Part shown: positions 10,230 to 56,398 of the stretch, one piece after another
Position numbering within the stretch: the first letter of the stretch is position 1
Layout: each line of letters opens with the position of its first letter
Source: Armatimonadota bacterium
Lineage (GTDB): Bacteria; Armatimonadota; Zipacnadia; Zipacnadales; UBA5352
DNA: 56,398 bases
NCBI GenBank assembly: GCA_034722055.1
Contig: JAYENL010000154.1
Span: forward strand, 24,444 to 80,841
Direction: 5' to 3'
The notes under the pieces: model-generated
Seen by the model: the letters and a program-made list of their open reading frames with translations, nothing else
Database searches by the model: none
What the model was told of the DNA's origin: nothing
Program-made: the position numbers and the translations under genes

Positions 10230-10900
10230 CCTTGGGAGGCGGGCGCCCCCGCCCGTTTCTCCTGGCGACAACATTCGCGTAGGCCGGGCTTCCAGCCCGG
10301 ACAGACGGCGCACGCACAGGAGTGTGCGTGCCACGGAACGACACGGCATCCGCCAGCCGTTGACCGTTCGCCGTCGAGCGTCACGCACGCAAGGGGCCTT
10401 TCGGTGGGACGGACACTCCTGTCCGTCCGCCGTCCTGCGCAGGCCCGAAAGCCACCCGAAGAAGCGCACGCGCCCGCCCGCTTCTCTCGCACATCCTCCG
10501 CGTAGGCCGGGCTTCCAGCCCGCCAGCGACAGAAGAAGCACCCCAGCGGAGGGGCCGCCTGAGGGCGATTGCGCCGCAATCGCGCAAAGTCGGCCCGGCG
10601 GGTGATTGCCAGGCCTGGGCCGGCTTCGTCGGGCCTGACGGCCCTCCTCAGGACGGCCCCTCCGACGGCCTCTCGTCGTGCCATCCAAGCCGATGACCCA
10701 CCCCGACGCGCGCGACGGGCGGAGCCGGTGCAAGGCTCACCTCTCCGCTCGCTTCTCCTCGCACATCCTCCGCGTAGGCCGGGCTTCCAGCCCGGCAGCG
10801 ACAGACGAGGCATGGATAGAGACTAGATGTCTCCGGTACGCGTGCCACGCAATGACGCCTTGGGGCGCCTGCGCAAAGAAGGTAACCGCGCGCCGCAGCC
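10230..10900. repeat. cluster of at least 4 copies (both orientations) of a ~90-130 nt structured intergenic repeat; core CGCGTAGGCCGGGCTTCCAGCCCG + variable hairpin + GTGCCACGNAAYGRCG
   Basis: Forward cores start at ~10276, ~10500 and ~10773. A partial inverted copy lies at ~10375-10470. Each contains hairpin 1 (CCGGGC TTCCA GCCCGG). Hairpin 2 varies compensatorily between copies (GCACGCACA-GGAG-TGTGCGTGC versus GGACGGACA-CTCC-TGTCCGTCC versus GAGAC-TAGAT-GTCTC). The same family occurs at 33328 and 33533. Confidence 0.7.
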
Positions 10901-12264: not shown

Positions 12265-12371
12265 GGGGAGGCCCTCAGACAGCCGACGACAGCTCGCTCA
12301 GGCAGGGGTATCGAATGCCGGCGCATTGCCCGGCGGTCGCGGCCCCGTGCCGAGCCATTGCCGCGCCGTAT

Positions 12372-12400
12372 GGAGGGGCCGGACCACCGTCCGGCCCGCC
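12372..12400. repeat. REP-like palindromic hairpin GGAGGGGCCGGACCACCGTCCGGCCCGCC (9-bp stem, 4-nt loop) in a convergent intergenic region
   Basis: The same 29-mer (C/T variable in the loop) recurs at ~33226, ~33431 and 44334. This copy is flanked by the shared context TTGCCGCGCCGT. Confidence 0.6.
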
Positions 12401-12411
12401 GTTTCTTGGCA

Positions 12412-27486: not shown

Positions 27487-28515
27487 ATGGCGTTGCTCGA
27501 ATGGTACAACTTGATCTTCGTGGCTCCCGTTGGTCTGGCCGGCGTCTACCTGGTCCTGAGCGCCACGAGCATTGGCGACCTGACCGGGGAGACGGATGTG
27601 GACACTGACGTGGATGCCGACCTCGACCACGACGTGGACCTGGGAATGGACCATGATGTGGACACGGACATGGACCATGACCTGGACCTGGACATGGATC
27701 ATGACGTCGATCTGGACATGGATCACGACGTTGATCTCGACATGGACCATGATGTCGATGTGGACATGGACCATGATGTTGATGTGGGGATGGACCACGA
27801 CCTCGACGTCGATCATGACATCGACATGGATCACGATGTGGATGTCGATCACGACGTTGAGCTCGGCCACGACGTAGACATGGACCATGACGTAGACATG
27901 GACCATGACGTGGACATGGACCACGATGTGGACGTCGGCCACGACGCCGATGTCGGTCACGACGCGGACCTCGGTCACGACGTGGAGGCCGAGCACGATC
28001 TGGAGGCCCACCACGAGGCGACCGTGCACGCCCATGAGCCGTCCCTCTTCCTCCGAGCCCTGTCGGTGCTTGGGTTCGGGAAGGTCCCGCTATCGATCCT
28101 GGGCACCTGTCTGATGGTGCTGTTCGGCGCCACGGGTCTGATCGCCAACGGGCTGTTCGAGCACGTGCTGCCCTGGGAGTGGGCGCCCACGGTCTACGTG
28201 TGGCCGTCACTGGCGCTTGCCGTCTTCGCGTCCCTGACGCTCACCGGCTCCATGGCCCGGGGGCTGCATCGGATTATGCCCACCCGCGAGACCTACGCGG
28301 TGGGCCCCGAGGACCTGGTGGGCCGGGTCGGCGTCCCCATCTACGGCATCAGCGCCGGGCGGCGGGGCGTGGTCCACGTCAAAGATGAGGGTGGCACTCT
28401 GCACCAGGTGATGGGCCGGTCGCTTGAGGGGGACCTCGCCAAGGGCGCAGAGGTCATCCTGGTACGCTACCATCCGAAGGGGGATTACTATGACCTCACA
28501 GCCTCGCCCCTGTAG
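27487..28515 (+). CDS. NfeD-like (YuaF-type) membrane protein with an inserted Asp/His-rich (DHDVDM)n repeat region
   Basis: N-terminal TM helix, then ~23 tandem hexapeptides, then 2-3 TM helices, then a C-terminal OB-fold-like segment (GRVGVPIYGISAGRRGVVHV...GAEVILVRYHP) typical of short NfeD proteins that pair with flotillins. Confidence 0.7.
   Translation: MALLEWYNLIFVAPVGLAGVYLVLSATSIGDLTGETDVDTDVDADLDHDVDLGMDHDVDTDMDHDLDLDMDHDVDLDMDHDVDLDMDHDVDVDMDHDVDVGMDHDLDVDHDIDMDHDVDVDHDVELGHDVDMDHDVDMDHDVDMDHDVDVGHDADVGHDADLGHDVEAEHDLEAHHEATVHAHEPSLFLRALSVLGFGKVPLSILGTCLMVLFGATGLIANGLFEHVLPWEWAPTVYVWPSLALAVFASLTLTGSMARGLHRIMPTRETYAVGPEDLVGRVGVPIYGISAGRRGVVHVKDEGGTLHQVMGRSLEGDLAKGAEVILVRYHPKGDYYDLTASPL
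27592..28012 (+). repeat. in-frame tandem 18-bp repeat (consensus gaccatgacgtggacatg) encoding (M)DHDVD hexapeptides, ~23 units
   Basis: Directly visible in the sequence. Units vary by point substitutions (D/G, V/L/I, M/L/V), giving an Asp/His-rich acidic stretch. Confidence 0.9.
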
Positions 28516-33165: not shown

Positions 33166-33213
33166 CGCCCTGACTCGTCTCTCGTACGGAGGGGCGGCCT
33201 GCCCAGGCCGCCC

Positions 33214-33600
33214 GCCGTGCCGTCTGGAGGGGCCGGACCACTGTCCGGCCCGCCGTGCCGTTTGCCGCGCCGTTTGGAGGGGCGCGACTACGTTCGCGCC
33301 CGGCCGTCGCCGCCCGCTCTATCTCACGCGCAGGTCGGGCTTCCAGCCCGACAACGCAAACGACGCACGGACCGAGACCAAAGGTCTCCAGTGTCCGTGC
33401 CACGGAACGGCGGCCTTTGCCGTGCCGTCTGGAGGGGCCGGACCACTGTCCGGCCCGCCGTGCCGTTTGCCGCGCCGTTTGGCGGGGCGCGCCTCCGCTC
33501 GCGCCCGGCCGTTGCCGCCCGGTCTATCTCACGCGTAGGTCGGGCTTCCAGCCCGACAACCCAAACGACCGGCGGGTCTGAAGACGCCGCCGCTCCTATA
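33214..33600. repeat. two tandem copies (period 205 bp) of a composite repeat: REP hairpin + GC hairpin + CGCGYAGGTCGGGCTTCCAGCCCG structured core
   Basis: 33214-33418 and 33419-~33600 are near-identical (GCCGTGCCGTCTGGAGGGGCCGGACCACTGTCCGGCCCGCCGTGCCGTTTGCCGCGCCGTTTGG...). They sit directly upstream of the candidate restriction endonuclease gene. The long ORF 33217..34377 through them is an artefact. Confidence 0.85.
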
Positions 33601-44150: not shown

Positions 44151-44333
44151 CCGCTCACGTCCGACCGCAACGGGCCTGCCGCATCCGGCGGCAGGCCCGT
44201 TCTCGTGCCGCCTGCACTCTCGGCTGGCCCGCTGAGAGCGTGGTTGCGCCCCTCCCAGCGGCAGAATGGCCGACCGCGCCCCTGAACCGCTGCGCTGCGC
44301 ACCGATTGCCGTCACGCGAGCGCAAGCTCGCGT

Positions 44334-44362
44334 GGAGGGGCCGGACCACCGTCCGGCCCGCC
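44334..44362. repeat. REP-like hairpin GGAGGGGCCGGACCACCGTCCGGCCCGCC (fourth copy), preceded by a second hairpin CGCGAGC-GCAA-GCTCGCG
   Basis: Identical to the 12372 copy. Lies in the tkt-to-oxidoreductase intergenic region. Confidence 0.6.
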
Positions 44363-44473
44363 GTCGTTCTGGCCTGCACCACGCGTTGCTGTGCATGAAG
44401 GCAGGAAACCATCGCGACACGCGGAAGAGGGCCTCTGATGCGGCGCCGACCTGCTCTGCAGAGGAGGACACCG

Positions 44474-52058: not shown

Positions 52059-53886
52059 CTACGCCTCCCGCTCCCGCCGACGGCGTCGGAGCCGCCAGAC
52101 GATTCCCCCCAGTCCCAGGATCACCAGCGTGGTGGTGGCGGGCTCGGGCACGTACTCATCGGAGTAGCCGATCGCCGCGAAGCCATCGAGCATCCCGTAG
52201 CCGAAGTAGGGATCGTAGCCGGAATCGCCCAGGTCCTGGGCGGTCTCCTGGAGGATGGCGCGCAGGTCATCGTTGGTGAGGAAGGGATAGCGCGACTTGA
52301 GCAGCCCGGCGAAGCCCGACACGATCGGTGCGGAGAAGGATGTGCCCATGGCGTCCACGCTGTAGAGGTTCTCACCCAGCGGGAGGAAGTCTGGCCCCCA
52401 GAGCGGGCCGGCGAGCTGGTCGGTCCACCAGTCATTGGCGCTGAAGACGGAGCAGGTCCACATCCCCAGCGTATTGACGCTCTCGCCGGGGGCCATCACA
52501 TCCAGGTACTCACCCAGCAGCGGGTCGGCGTAGCTGGAGAAGTCGGACTTGGTGTGATCCTCGTTCGTGGAGCCGACCGAGATGGTCTCGGGCAGGTTGG
52601 CCGGGAAGTCAAGCCCACCGGCGTGGCTCTCCTCGTCACCGAAGTACTCGTGGTCGTCGTAGTCGGGGATGAACATGTGGTTATCGGAGTTGCCGGCCGA
52701 TGCCACGATCATCACGCCCTGGGCGTGGGCCCACTCGATGGCCTCCCTGACCAGCGCGCCCTCACCCCCCTCCTCGAACTCGGCCGGATCGATCATGTAC
52801 ATCGGACCGAAGCCCCAACTGAAGTTGAGGACGTCGGCGCCGTTGTTCACCGCGTGGTAGATGGCGTCGGCGGCGTCGATGCCGAAGCCCCAGCCCTCGG
52901 CATTGATCACACGCAGGGGCATGAGGCTGGGCTCCCAGGCCATGCCGGCCATGCCCTTGCTGTTGTTCGTGACGGCGCCGGCCATGCTGGCAGCGATGGT
53001 CCCATGCGCCACCCCGGCGTCCACGGAGTTGTAGGGATACGGGTAGTCGATGCCCGGGTCATTATCCACCGTATCACCGATGGCGGGGTCGTAGTTGGCA
53101 GCCCACCACGCGGCTCGCTCGCTGTCCTCGCTGAACTCGTCGAAGTCGGGGTATCCGTGGTCCTCCGGCTGACCCCAGGCAGGATCCCAGACGGTGGGGT
53201 TGGCGTCCTCGCTGGTGGGGTTGTCCTCAGACTCCGCGGGCGGGGCCTCCGTCCACCAGCCCACGTTGTCGCCCACGAAGTCATAGCCCGTCACGATCTT
53301 GGCGGCCAGGTCCTCGTGGTAGACGCTGATGCCGCTGTCGATGATGGCGATGACCGTGTCGGCGGAGCCCTTCTCCAGATCCCACGCCTGCGGGGCGTTG
53401 ACCTCGAACAGATAGAACTGGTTGTCCATCAGATCGGGGTCCATGTCCGGGTCGCCGAAGTCCTTGAAGAAAGGGTCATTGGGGGTGGCATGCGCGTGCA
53501 TGATCAGGTGCGGCCGCACGCGCTCCACGTCGGGCAAGGCGCTCAGGACCGTGATCGGCTCCGCAGCCTGCGGGGCCTGGTACGTCGTCGAAGGCAGATG
53601 CACCGAGGCGTAGTCCTCGAACCGGCGGTAGAACTCGGGCCTGACCCCGAACTGCCGCTCCACCTCCGAGGCGAACTTCTCCCGGTCGGCGCCGGGCTGG
53701 AGGCGGACCAGAAGGTGATTCTCGGCGTAGCTCGACTTCGGCTGAGCGGGACGAATCGGCCTGGCCCGCAGCATCCCCGGTGTGGTGATGAGGTCCGCCC
53801 CGGCATGGGAAAGCGCGCACAGCAACAGGAGCATGACAAGCGCGGACACGATGCCGACCCGAGCGCGCTGCCCAAGGCAGCCCAAC
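52059..53886 (-). CDS. S8 (subtilisin-family) serine peptidase with C-terminal PEP-CTERM sorting signal
   Basis: Catalytic triad contexts AIIDSGISVYHEDL (Asp), HGTIAASMAGA (His), GTSFSAPIVSGFAGLL (Ser). C-terminus VPEPATTTLVILGLGGIVWRLRRRRRE = PEP motif + TM + Arg cluster. Start (TTG ~53886, or GTG/ATG ~53850/53836) is uncertain. Confidence 0.8.
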
Positions 53887-54303
53887 GTCGGTGCCGCCGT
53901 GCAATCGCGCGCTTGCTTTGTGGGGGGGAGAACCGACCGTCGCACCCTCGCCAGCCAGGCGCCGGGGGTTATCGATGGATGATTGCAGACTCCGCTGGCG
54001 CCGTCGGGCGTGCGCCACCTGCCTGCCACGGGGGCATCACCTCTCTGCACACACACCCTGTCACCGCATCTCAGCTATGCGGCGACGTTCCCCGCGGTTG
54101 GAATCTTCTTATACCCTTTTTTCGCGTCGCAGTATGCACCGCACAGCGATCGTGAGCAAATCGTGAGGAAACTGGCCGGGAACCTCCGCATCCCATTGTC
54201 ACTGCCGGCGGGAAACTCAGGCGACAGAGAAACGGCCAGTCGCGGCCACCCTGGGGTGGAAGGTCGAGCCGACGCCGCAGGTAAGCTGACACACCTCGGG
54301 GCG

Positions 54304-55413
54304 CTACGGCGTGCCTGGGCCGGTCTCCTCCGGCCCCGCGGCACTGCGCGCCACGGGGGTACGCCGGAGCTCAGCGAGCTCCACGCCCTCGGGGATCTCC
54401 ACCACCTCGGAGCGGTCGTCCTCCGGCAGCCCCAGTGTCTCGTTGGCGATGGCCACGCTGGCGAGTGCGTCCTCCAGCCGCTGCCTGATCTCCGCCTCGT
54501 GCTCGGACACATGGGCCTTCAGCGCGGGGTCGTCGATCGCCAGCAGGCCCTCCGTGAAGCACGCCATGATGCGCCAGGAGTTGCGCTCATTCGGCAGCGG
54601 CAGCAGCAGCCGCGGATCCTCGCTGACCTCTTGGCGGTGGAACCACTCCATGTGCGCCGCCTCGTGCACCGCCACCGCCGCCATCTCCCACGCTGCCTTG
54701 CGCTGGAAGTCGATGTACTTGGCCGGAAGCAGGATCAGCGTCCGGGTTACCGGCTCGGAGGACCCGCACACATTGAGCGGGCAGACCGGAGACCAGTCCG
54801 GGAGGTCCACCGTGAGGTAGATGCTGCGAGCAGTGTCCCGGACGAAGTCGGCAAAGGTGCGCGTGCCATCGGGCTCCACCGTTACGGCCTCGAGCAGCTC
54901 CCAGAACCGCGCTGGAACATCGGTGGGCGGCTCCGGAAGCTGCTGAAGGCTGGGATCGGTGGCGATGGTCGGGGGCCCGGAGCCGTCCTGCCCGGTGAGG
55001 TCGGCCTCCTCGAGGATCGCCGCCGGTGAGAGCATCGTGGCGTGGGCCAGGCCCGCCAGGTCCCACATGATGCGCAGCGGCTCCGGATCCTCTGTGGGTC
55101 CCGCCTCCAGCACCGCGGCGGCCTGAGCATACAGCTTCAGCAGTTCGGCTCGCGCCGCTTCGAACTGCTCCCCCTCGGCCTCTCTGTCTCGCCAGGCCTC
55201 CAGGTACTGCTTCACGGTCTCCCGCCGCTGCTCATGCGCGCACAGCGTCGGGTAGTCATCGGAGGTGGGGCCGGGCTCGGCCGTGGCCGGCGGTGGCGGC
55301 GGTTCGCCCGCGCCGGGCTCCATGGGGGTCGGACACCCGGCCACCATGGCGGCCACCAAGAGCATGGGCCCGGCCAGCAGCGGCCGGGCCCATTTCGAGG
55401 CGATGCGTGTCAT
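54304..55413 (-). CDS. lipoprotein with HExxH motif (putative Zn metallopeptidase-like), unknown family
   Basis: Signal + lipobox (LLVAAMVAGC), Pro-rich linker, VAVHEAAHMEWFH. Confidence 0.55.
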   Translation of the reverse strand: MTRIASKWARPLLAGPMLLVAAMVAGCPTPMEPGAGEPPPPPATAEPGPTSDDYPTLCAHEQRRETVKQYLEAWRDREAEGEQFEAARAELLKLYAQAAAVLEAGPTEDPEPLRIMWDLAGLAHATMLSPAAILEEADLTGQDGSGPPTIATDPSLQQLPEPPTDVPARFWELLEAVTVEPDGTRTFADFVRDTARSIYLTVDLPDWSPVCPLNVCGSSEPVTRTLILLPAKYIDFQRKAAWEMAAVAVHEAAHMEWFHRQEVSEDPRLLLPLPNERNSWRIMACFTEGLLAIDDPALKAHVSEHEAEIRQRLEDALASVAIANETLGLPEDDRSEVVEIPEGVELAELRRTPVARSAAGPEETGPGTP

Positions 55414-55504
55414 GTCGCGCACGGTACATCGGTGCCCGGCGCCATCCTGCGCTGGCGGCGCCGCGCCGCCCGTCAGCTTCGCCATGATGGCTCGTCTTCT
55501 CAGA

Positions 55505-56095
55505 CTACTTCAGGTCCCAGTAGTAGTTGGTCTTCCAGATGGACGCGCTCTCCTTCCACCACTTCGCGTGCCCATCGCAGAAGGCGAAGTTGGCGCCCTC
55601 GTTGTGCCGGTAGTCGATGTTGTCGTCGCCGGGCGAATGACTGCACAGGGGGGAGGTATCGGACACGCCACAACACCTCGGTGCCCGAATGTAGCCCCGG
55701 GTGGCATCGGCGTAGAGGATGGTCTCGGCGGGCGACTTGACGTCAGCTATGAGTCTGGGACTGCGGCCCGCCACGTACGCCAAGTTGTTCCCGTACGCGT
55801 TGTCCCGTCGCCCCGGCTCCGCGTAGTCACTGTCGCTGGGACACTGGAATATCTGGATATTCTTGGTGTACGGGTAGAGCTTCGCCGCGTAGCAGGTCTC
55901 ACCGCGTCCGGTGAAGTCCCATGGTTCATTCCATGCACACCCGTGGCCCGGGAACCTCTCGTCGTAGTCCTGGAGGTACATCATGGCAGCCGTGCCGATC
56001 TGCTTGAGGTTGCTCAAGCAGCTCGCCTGCCGGGCCTTCTCCCGGGCCCGCGCGAACACCGGGAATAGGATGGCAGCCAGGATCGCGATGATCTG
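55505..56095 (-). pseudogene. DUF1559 (H-X9-DG) prepilin-like pseudopilin-family gene, 5'-truncated: lacks the Met and the N-terminal half of the prepilin methylation/TM helix
   Basis: C-terminal YRHNEGANFAFCDGHAKW (H-X9-DG). In-frame upstream sequence reads ...QIIAILAAILFPVFARARE (the second half of the conserved pilin N-terminus). It then hits a TAA 22 codons upstream with no start codon, at the boundary with the IS-like sequence. Confidence 0.55.
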
Positions 56096-56096
56096 A

Positions 56097-56398
56097 CTGC
56101 TGAAAAAGTGGGGTTGACCGCGGCAGGATTAGAGGTTTTCGAAGCGGAGGTGCAGAACAGGTATGTAGAGAGTTAGGGTATGTTGTTGGACAAAGGTGAT
56201 TCACGATGCAGCACCGACCGCAGCCGGAGCAGAACTCCATCTACGACGACTACTTCGTGCGCCAGATAGTCCCCCAGGACCATGAGCTTTTGGAGATCGA
56301 CCGGGAGGTCGATTTCTCGTTTGTACGGGAGGAGGTCGCGGACTGTTACAGCCACGACACGGGCCGGGAGGCCATCGATCCCGAGCTTCTGCTGCGGC
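56097..56398 (+). mobile_element. left end of an IS5/IS1182-family-like insertion sequence (runs off the window edge)
   Basis: Begins where DUF1559 homology breaks. Contains the start of a transposase ORF (see next feature). Confidence 0.5.
56206..56398 (+). CDS. IS5/IS1182-family transposase, N-terminal fragment (InsH-N/DUF772-like), truncated by the window end
   Basis: MQHRPQPEQNSIYDDYFVRQIVPQDHELLEIDREVDFSFVREEVADCYSHDTGREAIDPELLLR matches the conserved N-terminus of IS5/IS1182 transposases (...L..ID..VDFSF.R.E....Y...GRPAIDPE.LLR). Confidence 0.7.
   Translation, partial: MQHRPQPEQNSIYDDYFVRQIVPQDHELLEIDREVDFSFVREEVADCYSHDTGREAIDPELLLR

Follow-up and report, generated by a model that had tools for sequence, protein, structure and literature searches.

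The 56,398-nucleotide stretch of an Armatimonadota contig analyzed in this study (the window) ends inside an insertion sequence (IS) of the IS1182 family that interrupts a DUF1559 pseudopilin-like gene, a gene with an H-X9-DG C-terminal motif. We hold with high confidence that a target-specific IS1182-family element transposed into this gene and inactivated it. A broader reading, which we regard as probable and advance with less assurance, is that a deep clade of such elements, together with miniature inverted-repeat transposable elements (MITEs), has evolved in the Armatimonadota and candidate division WS1 a near-absolute specificity for one 19-bp palindrome. This palindrome exists only through the invariant peptide I-A-I-I-A-I, the core of the type IV pilin-like signal helix, as it is encoded in GC-rich genomes, and the clade would represent a gene-family-specific transposon that lives in, and constantly erodes, the expanded set of DUF1559 pseudopilins.

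Interruption of a DUF1559 gene

The breakpoint between gene and IS lies between positions 56091 and 56092. On the minus strand, the gene remnant runs from the second Ile of the pilin helix (..IIAILAAILFPVF..) to a stop codon at 55505-55507, and it translates as IIAILAAILFPVFARAREKARQ...HNEGANFAFCDGH...WDLK-stop, with HNEGANFAFCDGHAKWWKESASIWKTNYYWDLK as its C-terminal end. The remnant matches Pfam PF07596 (DUF1559) at 50.6 bits (cutoff 23.3) and TIGR04294, the model of the H-X9-DG C terminus, at 30.2 bits (cutoff 19), and its H-X9-DG motif is HNEGANFAFCDG. The gene has lost its prepilin leader together with the initial half of the helix, GFTLIELLVVIA. The prepilin cleavage and methylation motif (PF07963; G/FTLIELLVV, the slash marking cleavage) is absent from the window copy, the gene being broken after the position of the motif. 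A PF07963-type motif is kept in an intact ortholog (P0125) and in nearly every homolog listed, which makes the window copy a disrupted member of the family.

Upstream of the remnant, the in-frame sequence is unrelated (SCRGQPHFFSSQ) and runs into a stop at 56129-56131; the interval from this stop to the helix contains no ATG, GTG, or TTG. The NCBI entry for the remnant, P0124, annotated as a "DUF1559 domain-containing protein," is called from a GTG at 56059, the sole start remaining; it begins past the hydrophobic helix, and its product would have no signal or anchor. No other pilin motifs or target-like sites were found across the 56-kb window.

On the IS side of the junction, the best family match of the 64-codon transposase fragment is NF033551 (IS1182), at 41.6 bits (E=7e-11); the equivalog cutoff of 270 bits applies to full-length proteins, and a 64-codon fragment necessarily scores below it. 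The fragment is 100% identical to P0001, [quoted passage not shown] from an 80,841-nt contig, and 84 to 88% identical to P0002, P0003, and the full-length transposases of two complete elements, L010 and L011. The tip of the IS (56092-56113) matches the left tip of another complete element, L043/L121, over 22/22 nt, and a 13-nt tip is common to the window IS and all close lineages. Over the 307 nt of IS in the window, DNA identity to any collected copy is at most 85%, so that the window copy is, judged by its sequence, a lineage of its own. There is no second copy of the IS within the window. The visible copy of the target duplication, 56089-56091, reads TGA on the plus strand and TCA on the gene strand.

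The same junction, with the same genes, is present in an independent Logan assembly, L001 (run SRR26901928), which stops 22 nt inside the IS, as expected of a de Bruijn assembler at a repeat boundary. Positions 1-31 of this contig correspond to window 56083-56113, and it ends exactly one k-mer (31 nt) past 56083; the data suggest that the SRR26901928 community contains several pilin-targeted copies sharing the flank ..CGCGATGA and the tip. Contig L003 becomes Nextera adapter (CTGTCTCTTATACACATCT) at about positions 470-540, soon after the transposase N terminus, so that the remainder of its 3' part is an artefact, as are the last residues of P0003 at the C terminus.

An earlier note on the window had placed an IS5/IS1182-like element in the 5' end of a DUF1559 gene, a placement borne out by the NF033551 match, the PF07596/TIGR04294 remnant, and the junction. 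It had described the in-frame sequence upstream of the remnant as unrelated and reaching a stop without a start codon, as we find, and its plus-strand transposase reading frame was correctly drawn, with an ATG at 56206, 114 nt after the tip, and 64 codons that match IS1182. Its account of the remnant as retaining the C-terminal domain and the second half of the helix is right as to both parts, apart from the Q of its "QIIAIL," which comes from the tip of the IS and not from the gene.

Complete relatives of the element

Two complete copies were retrieved as metagenome contigs with the 64-residue transposase peptide: one occupies positions 249-2060 of L010 (1,812 bp) and the other positions 41-1847 of L011 (1,807 bp). 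Their transposases, of 507 to 508 amino acids (aa), score 334 to 340 bits against NF033551, above its cutoff, and carry DUF772, DDE_Tnp_1, and DDE_Tnp_1_6 in one open reading frame (ORF), in agreement with the expectation of the earlier note that the window reading frame would continue into a DDE transposase domain. Complete relatives measure about 1.81 kb and have terminal inverted repeats of 12 to 17 nt, with left tips of the form TCTGACTG[C/T]TGAA... and right tips of the form ...TTCA[A/G]CAGTCAGA. The L043/L121 element, from an Armatimonadetes metagenome-assembled genome (MAG), is complete at 1,811 bp and has perfect 17-nt inverted repeats. Across the IS1182 family, terminal inverted repeats enclose elements of about 1.3 to 2 kb, and target duplications range from 0 to 60 bp.

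The right end of L010 (2061-2299) adjoins a lipoprotein-like ORF (MYVAFAVIAAMLVLVGTGCE..), with no pilin 5' half and no duplication, the cause being a rearrangement at the IS or else chimerism of the assembly. Another candidate relative, L012, was dropped from the collection: its N-terminal match was 38%, its contig was AT-rich, and no full transposase ORF was found at the match.

Specificity of the insertion site

The census of insertion sites was drawn from loci retrieved by transposase protein alone and counts distinct junctions whose flank is 16 nt or longer; the lineages in it have transposases 100, 84, 79, 58, 58, 54, 45, and 40% identical to that of L010. A single position in the pilin helix holds 66 of the 67 distinct junctions, and the site of the inactivating insertion is therefore not random. 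The junctions at this position comprise 35 that adjoin 3' halves of pilin genes (..IAILAAILFPVF..) and 31 that adjoin 5' halves (M..RRGFTLIELLVVIAI). In the 45% lineage, nine identical copies lie within contigs of 68 to 578 kb from one metagenome, with their flanks properly paired.

Antisense junctions, the arrangement in the window, number 47 and sense junctions 21, a ratio of about 2:1 between counts that are not independent, and both orientations are present even among copies with identical transposases (P0007, P0088). Removal of the IS and one copy of the duplication from the sequence restores ..IELLVVIAIIAIL... The duplication is a 3-bp T-N-A whose center follows the local Ile codon, the paired copies being TGA/TGA in L043, TAA/TAA in L053, and TTA/TTA in L049. 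A length of 3 bp was chosen because the lineages with TGTGACC...GGTCACA then end in TG...CA. In this clade one site is used across transposases as little as 40% identical, across different tips, and across MITEs.

The palindromic target and its empty state

The target is a perfect 19-bp palindrome, GATCGCGAT-C-ATCGCGATC, that encodes the I-A-I-I-A-I of the helix FTLIELLVVIAIIAILAAILFPVF. In these GC-rich genomes the codons of V-I-A-I-I-A-I-L are GTG ATC GCG ATC ATC GCG ATC CTG, and the insertion point is the center of GATCGCGAT-N-ATCGCGATC. Single-stranded, the target folds as a hairpin: an 8-bp stem is closed by a 3-nt loop whose sequence, TCA, is that of the duplicated triplet. Wobble variants in the arms (GCA, GCC, ATT, and ATA) are tolerated at occupied sites.

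An empty site, GTGATCGCGATCATCGCGATCCTG, is found in a syntenic locus of another Armatimonadota MAG (L126; GCA_049975765.1), which supplies the comparison with an uninterrupted allele that the earlier note had proposed. The intact ortholog at this locus, P0125, has 211 aa and is 82% identical to the window remnant; the neighboring gene is 80% identical to its counterpart at window 54304-55485, with an S8 peptidase after it. The DNA of the window is collinear with L126 from GATCATCGCGATCCTGGC onward, and the collinearity ends at the center of the palindrome. Unoccupied paralogs are also numerous: 22 were found in the same loci, almost all with an identical 24-residue helix FTLIELLVVIAIIAILAAILFPVF. 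The local density of targets is shown by L089 (CAZAHB010000303.1), in which six intact DUF1559 paralogs stand in tandem within 5.3 kb and the IS splits a seventh at the end of the contig.

MITEs and taxonomic range

MITEs of 108 to 142 bp were found in eight loci. They have the tips of the IS and unrelated interiors, of which there are at least three different kinds, and share with the IS both the position in the pilin helix and the 3-bp duplication. The 5' gene fragments at MITEs all read ..VVIA[I/M][I/M]-stop because the MITE tip supplies an in-frame TGA.

The range of these elements was assessed by scanning 185,579 species-representative genomes for the tip plus its flank, a pattern biased by construction to pilin flanks. 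The 65 loci returned comprise 16 AT-rich chance matches in unrelated taxa and 49 pilin-flanked loci, the latter in Armatimonadota MAGs (a Zipacnadia MAG and others), in two "candidate division WS1" MAGs, and in one 2.8-kb contig binned as Chloroflexota. Individual MAGs carry the elements on many contigs: 12 in SBF912SR3HQ0005, 12 in binchicken_co77_180, 7 in SRP098346_co1_170, and 10 in the WS1 MAG T3Sed10_264. Most matches in the scan lie at contig ends, which implies that the elements fragment assemblies. None of the 49 pilin-flanked loci belongs to the Planctomycetota; the earlier note had set the gene family in the context of that phylum, a framing that suits neither this contig, which NCBI labels Armatimonadota, nor the relatives found, the genuine ones being Armatimonadota or candidate division WS1. 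DUF1559 genes are numerous in the Planctomycetota, Verrucomicrobiota, and Lentisphaerota as well. A peptide-pattern scan of species-representative genome contigs, a set that does not include the MAG of the window, found no relative, and on viral contigs the 20-nt tip pattern gave only chance coding matches (DLTxEEV).

Proposed mechanism and alternative explanations

The palindrome at the junctions suggests that the transposase itself may read the target, either as a duplex or as an extruded hairpin or cruciform. In the mechanism we propose, a symmetric transpososome would read both arms of the palindrome and attack with a 3-nt stagger around its center, thereby duplicating T-N-A, and the symmetry of the target would allow insertion in either orientation. 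The window copy lies antisense, the commoner orientation, with a transposase gene divergent from the gene remnant. The tip of the IS gives the 5' fragment an immediate in-frame TGA (..VVIAII-stop), and the 3' remnant has neither a start codon nor a signal. The right end of the window copy is expected to read ..TTCAGCAGTCAGA and then TGATCGCGATCAC.., followed by the antisense prepilin leader M..RRGFTLIELLVV. Such sites would probably serve as a safe harbor, because they are abundant and individually dispensable: with many near-identical paralogs in the host, the cost of each insertion would be low and targets would be plentiful.

Several observations weigh against this model. The window copy is visible only as its left 307 nt, and its right end, the second copy of the duplication, and the 5' gene fragment lie on another contig; the inverted repeats, 3-bp duplication, and displaced 5' fragment (M..RRGFTLIELLVVIAI) that the earlier note expected were thus found in relatives, the window contig ending inside the IS. 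The right end of L010 is a junction outside pilin genes, the sole exception in the census, and many of the short metagenome contigs pair flanks of different genes. Duplications of 1, 3, or 5 bp are not strictly separable, since the tips of the IS mirror the target. The central base of the duplication is G, instead of the C, T, or A of the codon, in 6 of 31 5'-half flanks and in more of those in the genome scan, and the two duplication copies differ in the well-assembled L057 (TGA..TCA) and L059 (TGA..TTA). This anomaly counts against the model because a plain cut, fill-in, and ligate scheme does not predict it.

If instead the IS had spread from one ancestral insertion by homologous recombination or gene conversion between paralogs, through the nearly identical helix-coding DNA, some 40 nt long, that borders it on either side, no target specificity of the transposase would be needed. 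The extreme conservation of the flanks among the 22 intact paralogs and the many contigs that join halves of different genes fit such a history, and a conversion tract leaving the IS could account for the odd central G in some of the 5' halves. Conversion would keep a single orientation, however, whereas both occur within single lineages (P0007, P0088); wobble bases vary right up to the junction (GCAATGA, GCGATGA, GCCATCA, GCTATGA), and the duplicated base tracks the local Ile codon (TAA/TAA, TTA/TTA). The site is moreover shared by transposases only 40% identical whose tips are unlike (TCTGACTG against TGTGACC) and by unrelated MITEs, and it recurs in different lineages of MAGs; we consider spread by conversion very improbable. 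Little more than a token chance, likewise, attaches to the view that the insertion serves the host, either by switching reversibly or by providing a start or promoter from which the remnant is expressed in altered form. In favor of this view, 195 codons of the remnant ORF, the H-X9-DG motif among them, are undamaged, several remnants have been extended into the IS by gene callers, and some right ends have an in-frame TTG that precedes the junction by five codons. The window itself, on the other hand, has an in-frame stop 12 codons inside the IS and no start before the helix, and no promoter-like site was found at the IS end; among lineages the outward frames differ, most of them lack a start, and no outward ORF is conserved. 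Any product would have no G/F cleavage site and would be missing half of the helix. Of the two outcomes allowed by the earlier note, insertional inactivation therefore stands and replacement of the promoter or start does not, there being no start, no promoter-like site, and no conserved outward ORF.

Least credible of all, and in our judgment barely worth entertaining, is that the junction is an assembly chimera or that the pilin-like arms are the element's own extended inverted repeats. The contig does end in a repeat, and once the element has inserted, the arms on either side lengthen its inverted repeats to about 22 nt, but the same junction occurs in an independent assembly and the same architecture inside contigs of 68 to 578 kb. 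Beyond the helix, the flanks continue into 35 different, full DUF1559 3' parts and 31 different leaders, and the syntenic ortholog has an uninterrupted gene at the same locus.

The central base of the duplication

Read inward to the tip of the IS, the center base of the 3'-half flanks is the one predicted by the codon, G in 31, A in 2, T in 2, and C in 0, and that of the 31 distinct 5'-half flanks in the protein-fetched set is C in 20, T in 3, A in 2, and G in 6. The share of 5' halves with a G center is about a fifth to two-fifths. Such junctions, in which ATC or ATT becomes ATG regardless of the target codon, were seen in L057, L059, L002, L016, L017, L023, L061, and L074, and further ones in L088, L089, L107, L113, L116, and L123. 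The reciprocal state, which would put an in-frame ATG before IAILAAILFPVF, was found in 0 of the 35 distinct 3'-half flanks of the protein-fetched set.

The candidate explanations weighed were quasi-palindrome correction, artefacts of read error correction, inversion between copies, and carry-over of a donor flap or circle spacer. Carry-over of nucleotides from the donor flank during transposition may lie behind the anomaly, and conversion between IS ends combined with selection against an in-frame ATG is also possible. Correction against the element's own other arm is ruled out by L059 (G versus A), and the rare-N pairs TAA/TAA and TTA/TTA argue against donor carry-over as a universal cause.

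Relation to known systems

The staphylococcal elements IS1272 and TnSha1 insert into hairpins, with a reported lack of primary-sequence specificity, no target duplication, and loss of a portion of the hairpin (PMC4923244, PMC5678879). Certain IS1182-family members target palindromes, according to a review as it is cited in the IS1272/TnSha1 work (PMC4923244, PMC5678879). The clade described here resembles this family, including IS1272/TnSha1, in the above-cutoff match of its full-length transposases to NF033551, in its DUF772 and DDE_Tnp_1/_1_6 domains within one ORF, in a length of 1.8 kb, and in a preference for palindromes or hairpins. It differs from IS1272/TnSha1 in that it has one defined target sequence, inserts at the exact center, and leaves a 3-bp duplication with no deletion, and in that its target lies inside a coding sequence and not in a terminator. 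The absence of duplication and the hairpin deletion of the IS1272 type are not seen here, since removal of the IS and one duplication copy restores the gene exactly. A more distant IS1182-family element, with a 35% identical transposase, occupies positions 621-2373 of L129 (Priestia megaterium plasmid pNCT2_2). It has perfect 17-nt inverted repeats, GGAGACCTCCGAAAAAA, with a tip recognizably similar to that of the clade, and it lies in non-pilin DNA beside a reverse-transcriptase gene with a possible 3-bp CTT duplication.

Elements of the IS1397 type, which target repetitive extragenic palindromic (REP) sequences, home to a short palindrome repeated in the host, often to its loop or center, and have many harmless sites. 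ISs that target REPs and bacterial interspersed mosaic elements (BIMEs) include IS1397, ISKpn1, ISPpu9/10, and others (Tobes and Pareja 2006, PMC1525189). The present clade is like them in occupying a defined position in a repeated palindrome and in its safe-harbor logic (PMC1525189). Their targets, however, are extragenic and the elements belong to families IS3 and IS110, whereas the target here is coding; the palindrome exists only by way of a protein motif that the paralogs conserve, and a gene is destroyed with each insertion. The IS1031 group of the IS5 family makes a 3-bp TNA duplication, and IS30 has a palindromic hot-spot consensus. The clade shares with these a T-N-A duplication and a target whose symmetry suits a symmetric transpososome, but their preferences are loose and scattered over the genome and do not converge on one position in a gene family. 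The R1 and R2 retrotransposons of animal rRNA genes occupy one exact site in a multicopy gene of conserved sequence and are tolerated as other copies remain intact; they are a conceptual analogue, with an entirely different mechanism (target-primed reverse transcription) and entirely different hosts.

In the literature, with ISfinder and TnPedia outside the scope of the search, we found no IS or MITE described as homing to genes for pilins or DUF1559 proteins, nor, within the same scope, any account of IS1182 elements in the Armatimonadota. The family and its targeting of palindromes are known; the novelty lies in a target that is defined, coding, and gene-family-specific and is used with near-absolute fidelity. 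The earlier reading, in which an IS inserted into a DUF1559 gene and inactivated it, is right but unremarkable, and the site specificity, the more interesting part, was missed there. Sequence-specific DDE transposons are rare, and the clade is of interest both for the mechanism of transposition and as a starting point for targeted-insertion tools. A conserved protein motif can, in this way, create a genome-wide "REP-like" DNA target, and the elements are a force that pseudogenizes and reshuffles the DUF1559 pseudopilin family. In practical terms, assemblies of Armatimonadota MAGs are broken by these elements precisely where a pilin-like gene lies, and their insertions give rise to truncated entries annotated "DUF1559 domain-containing protein," P0124 among them.

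Features of the window and of related loci

Coordinates of the IS end, the interrupted gene, and the MITEs; positions refer to the window unless a locus is named
Feature	Position	Strand	Basis or remarks
DUF1559 / H-X9-DG pseudopilin-like gene, 3' portion	55505-56091	minus	translation, profile matches, ortholog comparison
Largest ORF left in the remnant, 184 aa, GTG start	55505-56059	minus	NCBI protein P0124
Retained palindrome arm GATCGCGAT at 56081-56089, overlapping one duplication copy	56081-56091		window sequence
Left terminal inverted repeat of IS, TCTGACTGCTGAAAAAG	56092-56108	plus	match to L043/L121 tip
IS leader, 114 nt, tip to transposase start	56092-56205	plus	holds minus-strand pilin-frame stop 56129-56131
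IS1182-family transposase, first 64 codons	56206-56398	plus	ATG 56206, open to contig end
MITE	L062 5474-5581		
MITE	L073 1437-1544		
MITE	L087 633-740		
MITE	L092 1802-1911		
MITE	L095 329-438		
MITE	L113 1529-1641		
MITE	L116 2817-2958		
MITE	L123 320-429		

Near the interrupted gene, the minus strand at 52059-54056 encodes an S8 peptidase with a PEP-CTERM-like C-terminal tail (..VPEPATTTLVILGLGGIVWRLRRRRR). The placement of an S8 peptidase next to the DUF1559 gene is conserved at L126, where Pfam weakly flags PEP_exosort_dom. Short GC-rich hairpin repeats, REP-like and of two families (..GGCCGGACCACCGTCCGGCC.. and ..GGCCGGGCTTCCAGCCCGG..), are scattered through the window, at 12354-12402, 33208-33256, 33413-33461, and 44316-44364 and further at 10268-10300, 10491-10523, 10763-10795, 33319-33351, and 33524-33556; among them is a tandem pair of 205 nt at 33214-33569. 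A long 12-nt-periodic repeat at 27570-27983, with units of the (D/H)(M/V/L)D type (GAC ATG GAC CAT GAC..), encodes a His/Asp-rich, low-complexity protein segment.

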